A stretch of DNA of 64,000 nt from assembly GCA_027623675.1 (NCBI GenBank), contig JAQBVF010000003.1, forward strand, positions 64,001-128,000. The letters are read 5' to 3'. Shown here one piece after another: positions 21,001 through 24,000 of the stretch. Source of the DNA: Chloroflexota bacterium. Lineage in GTDB: Bacteria; Chloroflexota; Dehalococcoidia; Lucifugimonadales; UBA3495. Within the stretch, counting starts at the first letter, position 1, and every line of letters starts with the position of its first letter. The position numbers are program-made.

Positions 21001-24000
21001 GCGAAAGAAACGTCCCGTCCCGCGAACTGTTTATCGGGTGAGATCGTGAGGGAAACACCGCTTCCCAGATCGACTCTGGCGACGCCCGGAGGGGGCGGAG
21101 TGGGAGTTGGCCTCGGGGTGGCGGTCGGCTGAGGGGTAGGCGTGGCGGTCGGCGGTATGGGCGTCGCGGTGGGAGCGGGGGTCAAGGTCGGGACCGGGAC
21201 GGCAGTCGCCGTGGCCGCCGGCGTGGGGCTTGGCGTTGGCCGTGGCGAAGCGGCCGTAGCCGCGGGGCTGGCGGCGGTTGGACCTGGGGTGGCCGTGGCC
21301 GGAGTGGCCGTTGAATCGGACGCAGGCGTTTTCGGCCCGGCGGACGGGGTGCAGGCGGCCAGGCTGATCAGAAGGGCAATCGCAACTAAGACCGCGGTAG
21401 TCAGCTTCATGACTTGGCGGCTTTGGCACCTGAAGGGCAGGCCGAGAGGCACGGTTGGGATTTGACCAGCATGAATCCAGTCTTACATAGGGGGAGTTCT
21501 AGGGCAAGCAAGGCGTCGCGTCCCACGCTTGGTCTGGACCGGAGGCCCAGACCAGAGGCTCAGACCGGAGACAGAACATGCCGATCGAGATTTTGCCTGG
21601 GTGAAAGAGTCAAACTCGTGTTAGGATAATCTTGATTTTTGAGGCCCATTCCTGGCCGTCTCATCAAGACCGGTCAGGCCATAACGACTGGAGGGTGCCA
21701 TGAACGTCCACGTTTACACGCAACCTGGTTGATTCAGCTGCCGGACTGTAGAAGAATTTCTGAAGTCCAACGGTGTTCAGTATGAGCACCACAACGTACT
21801 GGAAGACCAACAAGCCCTGGAGGACCTGCGCGGCCGGGGCATAAAAGCATTGCCGGTGACCATCATCGATGACTCAGAAGTCATCATCGGTTATTTCCCC
21901 AAGAAGCTGATTCCTGCGCTCAAGCTGGATGTGAAAGTTGATCTTTCGGGAAAGACCGAATGGCTGGCCGACAAATACAACAGGATACTCAGCGCGGCTG
22001 TCCGGACCACTGCCCAGTTCTCGCAGGAGCAGCTGGACGCGGAAGTGCCGTGGCGTCCTTGGACCCTGCGGAAGACCGTCCTCCACATCATGTCCTTTCC
22101 CGAGGTGGCCTACCTGAGCCACAAGGTGGGCAGCATGAGCCAGGAGGACATGCGGGCCTCCGACGCACGCCTGGAGCCGGTCTATACCGCCGGCGACATG
22201 GCTGAATACGGTGAAAAGGTGCGCGGCGACATTGTGGCGTTCCTGAACAGCGGCGACATCGATGCCTTCGACCGGGAGGTTCCCGCCCATTACGGCGGCG
22301 AGGTAACGGTTCTGGAACTGCTGAACATCATTTTGAGCCACAGCACCCATCATCTGAAGCAGGTTTATCACCTGATGCAGACCGATCTCGGCATCACCCC
22401 GAAAGACCCAGCCAGCGATGCCGACTTTGAGGGCATCCAAACCCCGGAATCCCTTTTCTAGGAACCTAGCGTTTCGTCCTGCTTAGGATTGCCGGTCCTT
22501 CCGCGGAGTGCCTGTTGCGCTGCGGAAGGACTGTATCTTTAGAAGGGTTGTATCTTTAGCTTGACCGGCGCACTGGGATGGACGCATTGCCATCCGTCCC
22601 TTTAGGCCGTCCCTTTAGCCTGTCCTTTTAGCGAGATTGGTGTTGTAGAAAAGATCTTACCTTTAGCGGAGTTGATATGAAATACGACTATATAGTCCTT
22701 GGCGCGGGCTCGGCCGGTTCGATCGTGGCAACCCGCCTCTCCGAAGACCCGTCCAAGAATATCTTGCTGCTCGAGGCGGGCCCCGACTACCCGGATTTCG
22801 AGCGTCTCCCCGAGGAAGTGAAGTTCGGCTACGCCACCGAGATCGACATCATGGTCAGCGACCACAACTGGCAGTTCGTGGGTAAGGCCACCGAGAAAGC
22901 GCCCGAGATGATGGTCCCCAGAGGCAAGGTAACCGGCGGCTCCAGCGCCATCAACGGCCAGGTCTTCCTCAGGGGAGTGCCCGAGGACTACGACTCCTGG
23001 GCCGAGATGGGCAACACCGAATGGAAGTTCCAGGACTGCCTGCCCTATTTCCGCAAGATCGAAACGGACACCGACTTCAGCGACGACTTCCACGGTAATG
23101 AAGGCCCCATCGTGATGCACCGCTTCCCCCGGGACACCTGGCATCCGGCGACCGAGGCCTTCTATCAGGCGTGCCGAGCCGCCGGCTATCCCGATTCCCC
23201 AGACCACAACAACCCTGATTCCACGGGCGTGGGGCCAACCCCGCTGAACAACCCCAACGGCATCCGCATGAGCACCGCGTTGGGCTACTTGGACCAGATC
23301 CGGCACCGCCTCAACGTGACCATCCGGGCCAATTGCCATGTGCAGCGCATCCTGTTCGAGGGCAAGCGGGCCGTGGGCGTCGAGGTTGAGAGCGGCGGTG
23401 AGAGATTCACAGTTGAGGGCGCCGAGATCATCTTGAGCTGCGGGGCCATCGGTTCGCCCCATACCCTGATGCTGTCCGGCGTCGGTCCGGCCGCACACCT
23501 GCAGGAGTTCGGCATACCCGTGGTACATGATGCCCCCGGCGTCGGTCAGAATATGCGCGACCATCCGCTGGTGTTCGTTACCTGGCGCACCAAACCGGAG
23601 GTGGAACTGGACGGCAACGCACCCCGGATGCAGGCCACCCTGCGCTACACCGCCGGCGGGTCAGACCTCCGGAACGACATGAAGGTCTCCATGCAGTCAT
23701 TCGCCACCGGCCGGATCAACCTGGGCGGCGACCGGATGGTTCCCCTGGGCATCCGCATGTCCAGCGGAATCCAGTTGGCCGCCGGGGCCGGAGAACTTCG
23801 GTTGCAGTCGGCGGACCCTTCGGTGCAGCCGTTCTTGGACTACCGTTATCTGGAGGAGGAGTTCGACCGGGCACGCCTGCGGGAGACGGTCCGGATCTGT
23901 GTGGCCCTGGGCGAGGACCCGGCGTTCAAGGACATCATCCAAGAGCGTATCGAGCCCACGGACGCCGAATTGGAGAGCGACGATGCCCTGGACGAGTTTC

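Follow-up and report, generated by a model that had tools for sequence, protein, structure and literature searches.

In the 64,000-nucleotide stretch of Chloroflexota DNA analysed here (the window), we identified a gene at 21700-22461 on the forward strand that we read, with a probability of roughly 85%, as encoding one 253-residue selenoprotein, in which a selenocysteine (Sec) glutaredoxin-like domain is fused to a DinB_2 bundle. Judging from sequence comparison, selenocysteine is most likely inserted at the UGA of codon 11, with the aid of a SECIS-like hairpin downstream, and the protein is the Sec form, in Chloroflexota, of a widespread and uncharacterised glutaredoxin (Grx)-DinB_2 family.

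Reading frame and conservation of the TGA codon

The table-11 open reading frame at this locus (g00329) spans 21850-22461 and encodes 203 aa from a TTG start (21850-21852); all coordinates given here refer to the forward strand. The preliminary description had proposed that the true start lies upstream and that a TGA is read through at codon 11. Direct reading bears this out: an ATG at 21700-21702, preceded at a distance of 5 nt by a Shine-Dalgarno-like GGAGG (21690-21694), opens a frame that continues to the TAG at 22459-22461, and translation with TGA as U gives a product of 253 aa beginning MNVHVYTQPGUFSCRT. The TGA (21730-21732) corresponds to U11, the first residue of a U-F-S-C redox motif whose resolving cysteine, C14 (21739-21741), is invariant both among the Sec forms and when Sec and Cys forms are aligned together. 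The TTG lies inside the glutaredoxin fold and would thus not be the real start. After the stop codon, a 10-bp inverted repeat, GTCCTTCCGC...GCGGAAGGAC (22495-22531), forms a possible terminator stem; a consensus terminator scan called none downstream of the gene, this repeat included.

The presence of one TGA and no other stop in relatives, reported earlier for a smaller set, now extends to all 65 matches with E<=2.3e-17 among 401 genomes of the order, 45 of which reach E<=1e-30. All of these matches but one, which is split, cover approximately residues 1-3 to 240-253 (64/65). A phylum sample of 401 genomes added four matches at E<=1e-15, each again with one TGA. The TGA had been described within the motif YT[QN]PG-TGA-FSCRT in six of six loci; in the 54 related loci that we read residue by residue it is the first position of U-x-x-C without exception, with an ATG 10-16 codons upstream in every case. 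The residues before the TGA are kept as protein: codons 1-10 and the motif flanking the TGA are conserved in 54/54 loci, down to 25% identity.

If the TGA were a real stop, the product would be only a DinB protein of 203-237 aa made from a downstream start, and the upstream frame would be a chance occurrence or a short leader peptide. Such a reading fits the table-11 call and most database entries, which are 237, 233, 220 or 203 aa long and named 'DinB family protein'. We nevertheless regard it as very improbable, given the protein-level conservation on both sides of the TGA in all 54 loci. Proteins begun at the downstream starts, which are internal to the glutaredoxin fold, would lack strand 1 and the active site; the Cys-form relatives carry the same N-terminus uninterrupted, and a hairpin and frozen codons follow directly after the TGA.

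Read-through with another amino acid, such as Trp, Cys or Gly, by near-cognate decoding or a reassigned code, is hardly tenable. Of 921 long open frames in the same genome, 227 end in TGA, which is therefore an ordinary stop there, and it also terminates several members of the family. The codon-11 TGA stands where a CxxC redoxin has its catalytic Cys, and a conserved hairpin comes after it. Furthermore, the genome holds a complete Sec machinery, with selB (347.7 bits), tRNA-Sec (70.4), selA (554.8) and selD (380.3) all over their cut-offs, selD with a TGA of its own. What speaks for such read-through is that two database entries show W at the TGA position and that, in the cluster of one of them, 253-aa members come from short contigs and the others are truncated calls. 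The W-containing entries are probably table-4 gene calls. Against the Sec reading itself, one further database protein has Arg at the Sec position.

Metatranscriptome contigs of relatives (at least 80% likeness, three runs) span the TGA with at least 31 letters on each side; these contigs show no strand and cannot exclude DNA carry-over, and are therefore a weak hint of expression only.

Conserved hairpins downstream of the TGA

The SECIS-like hairpin had been considered weak, a judgement that does not hold on the larger set of loci: every one of them has a hairpin 13-39 nt after the UGA, and its codons are frozen in the Sec forms only. In the window it lies at 21743-21768, starting 10 nt after the UGA, with the stems GGACU/AGUCC and UAGAA/UUCUG and the apical loop GAAU. 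A second conserved hairpin, GGUGUUCAG-UAU-GAGCACC, follows at 21772-21790, where close orthologues show biased codons (GGT, GTT and TAT). The RNA fold of 21727-21800 reaches -24 kcal/mol (z -2.85). Loop distance and a loop G are the usual criteria for bacterial SECIS elements, and the apical loop carries a G wherever it was read, in GAAU in the window and as the invariant G27 in 24 distant loci.

Among the 30 orthologues of the close group, 93.3% of hairpin cells are paired, compared with 34-63% in slid controls, and one compensatory pair was observed (pair 18:35, GC to UA); some close orthologues have one or two outer pairs broken. The 24 loci of the distant group share the stem CGAAAG/CUUUCG, paired at 99.3%. 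This hairpin is invariant, so that the support there comes from frozen codons and not from covariation. Indeed, the stem uses ACG in 24/24, AAA in 22/24, GAG in 21/21, CTT in 24/24 and TCG in 23/24 cases, against gene-wide frequencies of 0.32, 0.60, 0.63, 0.14 and 0.21, respectively, and the top codon reaches only 0.29-0.78 in the other 39 columns of conserved residues. Cys forms choose codons freely at the same residues, and their folding is no better than that of shuffles (z -0.28 against -1.59). A similar hairpin, at +19 to +37, occurs in a separate stand-alone Sec-glutaredoxin encoded by this genome.

A permissive Rfam scan of 21650-21900 returned no SECIS family, only chance snoRNA-like matches at E>2. 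With gathering thresholds, a TPP riboswitch was the sole Rfam match in the whole window.

Domain structure

Both domains named in the preliminary description are recovered by Pfam. The N-terminal glutaredoxin/NrdH-like UxxC domain matches Glutaredoxin (PF00462) over residues 3-59 with 38.5 bits (cut-off 22.9), and we place the complete thioredoxin-fold domain at residues 1-76 (21700-21927) from this match together with the profile and superposition of the solved clostridial cGrx1 (7c10). Identity to cGrx1 is 38-40%, with a profile E-value of 6.9e-25, a VIA Z of 13.8 and an rmsd of 0.9 A over 74 residues, and U11 aligns with the first Cys of the CxxC motif in that structure. In an alignment of 38 Sec forms, U11, C14 and the cis-proline P52 are invariant. 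The AlphaFold2 model of the 253-aa product has a pLDDT of 92.6 and a pTM of 0.85. Scores for NrdH-redoxin (TIGR02194, 48.8 bits) and YruB (TIGR02196, 56.6 bits) stay below their cut-offs of 85.75 and 88.55; the domain is related to these families and, by these models, is not a member of them. The models of UXX-star Grx-like selenoproteins (NF041212, NF041114, NF041211 and NF047338) gave at best 36.5 bits against a cut-off of 66.

The C-terminal domain, joined to the first by a short linker, matches DinB_2 (PF12867) over residues 102-222 with 40.6 bits (cut-off 24.8). Its four-helix bundle, residues 85-240 (21952-22419), superposes on DinB-family structures with VIA Z scores of 16.1, 15.4 and 15.1 over 144-148 residues, the best being 2p1a; lower scores were obtained for YfiT 1rxq (12.8), mycothiol S-transferase 8f5v (11.9) and BstA 5wk0 (10.9). 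Three histidines form a putative metal-binding triad: H129 (22084-22086) and, within HSTHH (22339-22353), the H214-x3-H218 pair. All three are invariant in the 38 Sec forms, and when the Sec form is aligned with 35 Cys forms, H129 and H218 remain invariant and H214 is conserved to at least 90%. R119 is also invariant in the Sec forms, and Arg is conserved at the same column within the Cys-form alignment. By fold, spacing and what is known of the family, H129, H214 and H218 may correspond to the metal ligands of YfiT. No conserved Cys was found in the DinB domain, in either the Sec-form or the combined Sec- and Cys-form alignment.

Cys-form relatives and gene neighbourhood

It had been noted that no Cys-containing orthologue was seen. 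Full-length CxxC homologues do exist, mostly in Pseudomonadota: a search of a genome-contig collection with an alignment of 15 sequences as query recovered at least 574 Cys-form Grx-DinB_2 loci, some of which belong to named strains (Paraburkholderia caffeinilytica, Burkholderia spp.); metagenome-assembled genomes account for most of the others. All 35 full-length representatives have Cys at the U11 column. They are only 21-30% identical and are therefore homologues rather than shown orthologues. A quick tree, which contains several long branches, parts the Cys forms from 53 of the 54 Sec forms by one branch. The Chloroflexota genomes searched yielded no Cys form, and the source names of Sec-form database entries point to SAR202/Dehalococcoidia. 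In their sources the Cys forms are named only 'glutaredoxin', 'DinB superfamily/Glutaredoxin domain-containing protein' or 'hypothetical protein'.

In the window the gene has GMC oxidoreductases on either side and a peptidase-MA-like gene upstream on the opposite strand, and no functional link to these neighbours was found. The neighbours of 20 of 80 Cys-form loci, taken as the longest open reading frame per side, include an Old-Yellow-Enzyme gene in three cases and a LysR regulator in three, the latter all Burkholderia-type. No conserved partner gene emerged among the window neighbours and these 20 loci.

Proposed function

We infer from the two domains that the protein may act as a metal-assisted thiol/selenol redox enzyme; the 'thiol-transferase-like' function suggested before would likewise follow from fold and family. 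Since the DinB domain lacks a conserved Cys, there is no redox centre other than the fused UxxC, which leaves a substrate, and not a disulfide of its own partner, as the target of the redoxin. We tentatively propose, at somewhat short of an even chance, a reductase or thiol-transferase mechanism that combines the metal of the His triad with the UxxC motif. A divalent metal held by the triad would bind and polarise a substrate or thiol conjugate, the U11 selenolate would attack the metal-bound species, and C14 would resolve the adduct to leave a Se-S bond. NrdH redoxins are re-reduced by a thioredoxin-reductase-type system, and a system of this type could re-reduce the Se-S bond. Overall, the protein would be a self-contained metal-assisted reductase or thiol-transferase acting against oxidant or electrophile damage.

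In BstA/YfiT and mycothiol S-transferase, the metal site conjugates a thiol to electrophiles. By analogy with glutathione S-transferases (GST), the thioredoxin fold of the present selenoprotein could take up a free low-molecular-weight thiol, which the metal site of the DinB domain would conjugate to electrophiles, leaving UxxC mainly to de-thiolate or recycle. The resemblance of the DinB domain to 8f5v, BstA and YfiT, the layout of a thioredoxin fold next to a helical domain, which gives weak GST matches, and the Old-Yellow-Enzyme neighbour at three of the 20 Cys-form loci examined are in line with this idea. For GST_N_3 the score is 17.4 bits (cut-off 22), and the helical domain is the DinB bundle. 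We consider the idea rather unlikely, however. The whole-chain GST matches lie at an rmsd of about 5 A or more (VIA Z 8.7-10; Foldseek TM 0.25-0.29), and the YfiT bacillithiol-transferase equivalog (NF009807) reaches 19 bits, far below its cut-off of 160. Moreover, a redoxin of the protein-disulfide type is indicated both by the dithiol motif U/CxxC and by NrdH and cGrx1 as best matches. With the marker models used, none of the thiol markers exceeds its cut-off in this genome, which is 91.4% complete: there was no match for BshC or GshB, EgtB reached 21 bits and MshC had only a match below cut-off (328.7 versus 485.1 bits).

A quite improbable reading is that a metal or metalloid (e.g. Hg, As, Se or Te) is bound or transformed jointly by the Sec/Cys pair and the His triad, so that the selenoprotein would serve in detoxification or selenium handling instead of acting on an organic substrate. 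Neither a specific family match nor, among the neighbours examined, any metal-resistance gene was found to back it, even though the invariant triad occurs together with a selenol/thiol pair, weak ArsC/Spx-family similarities are present and several catalogued selenoproteins handle metals (2026 review, Table 1).

Returning to the metal-assisted redox enzyme that we favour, the U11 selenolate might itself be a ligand or nucleophile at the DinB His3-metal centre, forming a metal-selenolate site across the two fused domains, although we hold this to be unlikely. If true, this site would be a type of selenoenzyme without a described counterpart: a protein-borne selenol would do the job that free bacillithiol or mycothiol does in DinB S-transferases, in a lineage where no markers for bacillithiol, mycothiol, glutathione or ergothioneine were found. 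It would also give the large uncharacterised Grx-DinB_2 family its first chemistry.

Novelty and annotation

The preliminary description held the architecture to be missing from the current catalogue of selenoproteins. This is in line with the 119-family Table 1 of a 2026 review, which has no entry for DinB; Sec-glutaredoxin itself is listed, the selenoprotein glutaredoxin (PF00462, UxxC) being a verified family there. Judged against this table of prokaryotic selenoproteins, we read the protein as a novel fused form of a selenoprotein kind that is already known. Among the titles and abstracts listed by a literature search, no relevant paper joins selenoprotein or selenocysteine with DinB, and the search gave no paper on selenoproteins in SAR202. 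Dehalococcoidia-type Chloroflexota are among the most selenoprotein-rich bacteria according to the BSepDB paper.

The present reading corrects a systematic mis-annotation, as many public entries are truncated 'DinB family proteins' without the active-site domain, and extends the prokaryotic selenoproteome by a two-domain architecture. Furthermore, it ties a redox-active U/CxxC motif to the poorly understood DinB fold, offering a testable handle on the whole Grx-DinB_2 family with its at least 574 loci.

Comparison with known systems

Among the closest counterparts are the Cys-form Grx-DinB_2 proteins, which have the same two domains in 245-276 aa, CxxC in place of UxxC and the same His residues. 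They differ in having Cys for Sec and in lacking the hairpin and the codon freezing after the active-site codon. Clostridial Grx1, solved as its Cys variant cGrx1 (PDB 7c10/7c12), shares the small thioredoxin fold of the NrdH/Grx type, in which U/CxxC marks the beginning of helix 1, and the native clostridial protein is described as carrying Sec. Selenoprotein glutaredoxins are stand-alone proteins of about 75-85 aa, whereas the present domain is fused to a DinB_2 domain of 170 residues. In UXX-star Grx-like selenoproteins, Sec lies three residues from the C-terminus; here it is residue 11 of 253.

The four-helix-bundle fold is also found in YfiT 1rxq, BstA 5wk0 and 8f5v (Z 10.9-12.8) and in the mycothiol-dependent maleylpyruvate isomerase 2nsf/2nsg. 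In these S-transferases and the isomerase a His-bound metal activates the thiol, and the His...HxxxH pattern that is invariant in the present family may correspond to that site. These enzymes are only 12-16% identical to the present domain and lack a fused redoxin, their thiol being free bacillithiol or mycothiol. Sulfoxide and selenoxide synthases of the EgtB/OvoA/SenA type likewise combine a DinB-type His-triad domain with a second domain in one chain (Z 10-11.7), and have the active site where the two domains meet. However, their partner is an FGE-sulfatase-like domain, their chemistry involves Fe and O2, and the EgtB model scores 21 bits at most in this genome.

As a built-in reductant, the arrangement resembles fusions in which a glutaredoxin is attached to the enzyme it presumably serves, such as the Grx/ferredoxin-disulfide-reductase 7pwe, the hybrid Prx5-Grx 1nm3 and Grx-NrdB, although these have partner domains other than DinB_2. 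A precedent for a fused glutaredoxin beside its partner enzyme is given in the abstract of PMC6187632.

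Results

The gene at 21700-22461 (+) is a real feature and very probably encodes a true selenoprotein (probability 0.85-0.9). Read directly, the forward strand carries GGAGG at 21690-21694 and an ATG at 21700, and the frame stays open up to a TAG at 22459-22461 except for a TGA at codon 11 (21730-21732), confirming the upstream start and the single in-frame TGA put forward in the preliminary description. The gene called there, a 203-aa table-11 ORF with a TTG start (21850-22461, +), is the only ORF listed at the locus. With the TGA translated as U, the 253-aa product scores above the Pfam cut-offs for both Glutaredoxin (residues 3-59, 38.5 bits against 22.9) and DinB_2 (residues 102-222, 40.6 bits against 24.8), so that the proposed fusion holds as well. 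No NCBIfam model reached its cut-off on this product; the best score came from the YruB-type Grx-like model (56.6 against 88.55 bits), and the NrdH (48.8 against 85.75), UXX-star (36.5 against 66) and YfiT bacillithiol transferase (19 against 160) models were also below theirs. The locus has GMC-oxidoreductase genes on either side (17833-19419, -, and 22677-24224, +), together with a peptidase-MA-like gene of 633 aa (19551-21452, -) and a putative cyclase (25550-26479, -); gene neighbourhoods, here and at loci of the Cys forms, were uninformative on function. The window also contains a TPP riboswitch (RF00059, 2454-2569, -; 62.2 bits, above the gathering score).

The single conserved TGA claimed for relatives is found well beyond the immediate family. 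All 65 matches at E<=2.3e-17 in 401 genomes of the order contain one TGA and no other stop; 45 of them reach E<=1e-30 and 64 cover approximately residues 1-3 to 240-253, the remaining one (in genome G114) being interrupted by a frame break. A matching gene is present in 21/24 other genomes of the window's own family, and a 401-genome sample of the phylum added four genomes at E<=1e-15 with one TGA each. Residue-level reading of 54 loci, made up of 30 close orthologues, 20 more distant loci of the order and 4 from other parts of the phylum, showed in all cases a TGA that opens the U-x-x-C motif and is preceded by an ATG at a distance of 10-16 codons. The motifs fall into four sequence groups: YT[QNLA]PG-U-FSC-RT (58-74% identical to the window protein), [RH][QP]G-U-F[TH]C-[GA]RTKE[FY]LS (31-35%), YAR[KIV][GA]-U-ATC-ARTKEFLS (25-30%) and, elsewhere in the phylum, [PA]G-U-SSC-A[MK]TK (26-30%). 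Six genomes (G197, G092, G121, G224, G087 and G039) carry two fusion paralogues from different groups, each with its own TGA. U11, C14, L21, L43, P52, G64, R119, H129, H214 and H218 are invariant in a 38-sequence alignment.

The preliminary description had seen no Cys-containing orthologue; Cys-form homologues do exist. An exhaustive search of representative proteins returned many full-length homologues of 245-276 aa (23-32% identity by the search's own figures); 39 were fetched and 35 full-length ones aligned (21-30% identity in this alignment); without exception these carry C-x-x-C where the Sec forms have U-x-x-C, and both H129 and H218 are retained. Searching genome contigs with a 15-sequence alignment confirmed at least 574 Cys-form loci, the best 80 of which are nearly all from Pseudomonadota and include Burkholderia and Paraburkholderia strains, Rhodospirillaceae and Reyranella metagenome-assembled genomes and one Marinimicrobia. 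Their source names are only ‘glutaredoxin’ or ‘hypothetical protein’, and atlas clusters are auto-named ‘DinB superfamily/Glutaredoxin domain-containing protein’. In a quick maximum-likelihood tree with several long branches, one branch parts 53/54 Sec forms from 35/36 Cys forms. The gene represents the Sec version of a Grx-DinB_2 family that is widespread and uncharacterised. Most protein-database entries for its close relatives are truncated calls (237, 233, 220 and 203 aa) named ‘DinB family protein’. Among the few 253-aa entries the Sec position is W in P0115 and R in P0108, a single-member entry and the only one with R; P0135 likewise has Trp. The P0115 cluster mixes 253-aa calls on 1.4-1.8-kb contigs with 184- and 221-aa calls, and the W in P0115 and P0135 probably reflects table-4 gene calls on short contigs.

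The SECIS-like hairpin had been rated weak, an assessment that we revise. RNA 21727-21800 folds at -24 kcal/mol (z -2.85; 3/200 shuffles as good). A first hairpin (21743-21768, +; GGACU/AGUCC, UAGAA/UUCUG, loop GAAU) begins 10 nt after the UGA, and a second, GGUGUUCAG-UAU-GAGCACC (21772-21790, +; 43-61 nt after the UGA), is kept in close orthologues; a hairpin occurs at the equivalent place in every locus examined. In the close set (30 loci, 28 distinct sequences) standard pairs fill 93.3% of 252 cells, against 34.5-63.1% with slid 3' partners, no shuffle of 500 matched the observed pairing or covariation score, and pair 18:35 is GC in 21, UA in 4 and UG in 2. Codons of the second hairpin are unusually fixed (GGT 19/29, GTT 25/28 and TAT 17/24, against gene-wide 0.21, 0.24 and 0.27). 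For the 24 distant loci, which share an unvarying stem, CGAAAG/CUUUCG, with 99.3% of its cells paired, covariation is uninformative and the evidence is codon choice: where the residue is present, T is ACG in 24/24 (gene-wide 0.32), K is AAA in 22/24 (0.60), E is GAG in 21/21 (0.63), L is CTT in 24/24 (0.14) and S is TCG in 23/24 (0.21), compared with shares of just 0.29-0.78 for the top codon at the 39 remaining columns of conserved residues. The Cys forms, represented by the 50/80 loci that the motif pattern parsed, use codons freely at the equivalent residues (Thr ACC 20, ACG 2; Leu CTG 26, CTC 13, CTT 5), and the fold of the 45 nt behind their active-site codon is no more stable than that of shuffled sequences, with a mean z of -0.28 against -1.59 in Sec forms and z<-2 in 2% against 35%. 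No Rfam family matched the hairpin region; to our knowledge, Rfam covers bacterial SECIS elements little. Together, the sequence comparisons support decoding of the UGA as Sec under the direction of the hairpin that follows it.

The window's own genome (G000, 91.4% complete) encodes selB (347.7 bits), tRNA-Sec (70.4), selA (554.8) and selD (380.3), and TGA is an ordinary stop in it, since 227/921 stop-to-stop frames of at least 400 codons end in TGA. Outside the window, selD (contig C3, 53424-54344, -) is itself a selenoprotein gene, with one in-frame TGA in the motif G-U-AAK and a strong hairpin 3' of it. The paralogous stand-alone Sec-glutaredoxin described earlier was recovered on contig C26 (59977-60165, -; YTQPDG-U-HFC), and its hairpin GCAAAAGA-UUA-UCUUUUGC, at +19..+37 after the TGA, is much like that of the distant fusion groups. 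The relatives G366, G137, G213, G313, G078, G346 and G180 have a stand-alone Sec-glutaredoxin gene on the other strand some 3-6 kb away from the fusion gene, perhaps a local pairing conserved in two genera. Contigs of relatives (at least 80% likeness) cover the gene in three metatranscriptomic libraries and bridge the TGA with at least 31 letters on either side (X17 record 1, X19 record 9, X20 record 16); loose contig ends are relatives' N-termini with synonymous differences. This is no more than a hint of expression, because the contigs do not reveal the strand and could stem from DNA.

AlphaFold2, run with the 38-sequence alignment, predicts two folded domains (mean pLDDT 92.6, pTM 0.85), with U11/C14 and R119/H129/H214/H218 strictly conserved. 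In superpositions of the model, residues 1-76 align with clostridial cGrx1 7c10 (Z 13.8, rmsd 0.9 A, 39% identity), with BC3987 and with NrdH, and residues 85-240 with DinB-family bundles (2p1a Z 16.1, 2hkv 15.4, DR0053 15.1), YfiT (12.8), maleylpyruvate isomerase (12.6), mycothiol S-transferase (11.9), BstA (10.9) and EgtB-type enzymes (10-11.7). A profile search of PDB sequences was concordant (7c10 E 6.9e-25, 1rxq 2.2e-4), and no solved chain among the structure matches covers both domains well.

Discussion

By analogy, we tentatively favour a metal-assisted reductase or transferase. In YfiT-type enzymes a His triad binds a divalent metal, and the putative triad of the DinB domain could do the same; a role in metal or metalloid handling seems improbable. 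Since neither Sec- nor Cys-form alignments show a conserved Cys in the DinB domain, U/CxxC would be the sole redox centre, and its target would be a bound substrate or a thiol conjugate and not a partner-domain disulfide. The selenenyl adduct would be resolved by C14 and the redoxin domain recycled by thioredoxin reductase, as NrdH-like redoxins are. None of the marker models applied for BshC, GshB, MshC and EgtB gave a match above its cut-off in the 91.4%-complete genome; two MshC matches below cut-off (C8:37620-38834, -, and C2:134214-135353, +; 328.7 and 214.7 against 485.1 bits) are presumably cysteinyl-tRNA-synthetase-type genes, the stronger one unusually MshC-like. The negative marker result fits, weakly, a protein-borne selenol in place of a free thiol cofactor; a GST-like function is a less probable alternative to the metal-assisted enzyme.

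Recognising the Sec form corrects widespread truncated annotations and provides a handle on DinB-fold chemistry. The statement of the preliminary description that the architecture is uncatalogued agrees with a 2026 review of prokaryotic selenoproteins (PMC13188914), whose Table 1 (119 families or subfamilies) lists ‘Glutaredoxin (Grx) PF00462 UxxC’ besides a number of Grx-like entries and fusions but no DinB or YfiT domain; the words DinB, YfiT and Chloroflex- are absent from the review's text. DinB is likewise not mentioned in the accessible portions of a 2022 review (PMC9312934) and of the BSepDB paper (PMC13326102), the latter reporting Dehalococcoidia genomes with 46-49 selenoproteins; the gene may already be in BSepDB or RefSeq under ‘Grx’. 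The accessible part of the GOS paper (PMC2398784) describes ‘Grx-like’ and ‘Arsenate reductase 2’ UxxC groups along with several fusions that do not include Grx/DinB, and N-terminal fragments of the family in its short reads could stand under either label. A fused glutaredoxin beside its partner enzyme has precedents in 7pwe and 1nm3, both among the fold matches, and in the accessible part of PMC6187632. Being the Sec form of the Grx-DinB_2 family, the gene is a new fusion variant of the known Sec-glutaredoxin rather than a new type of system.
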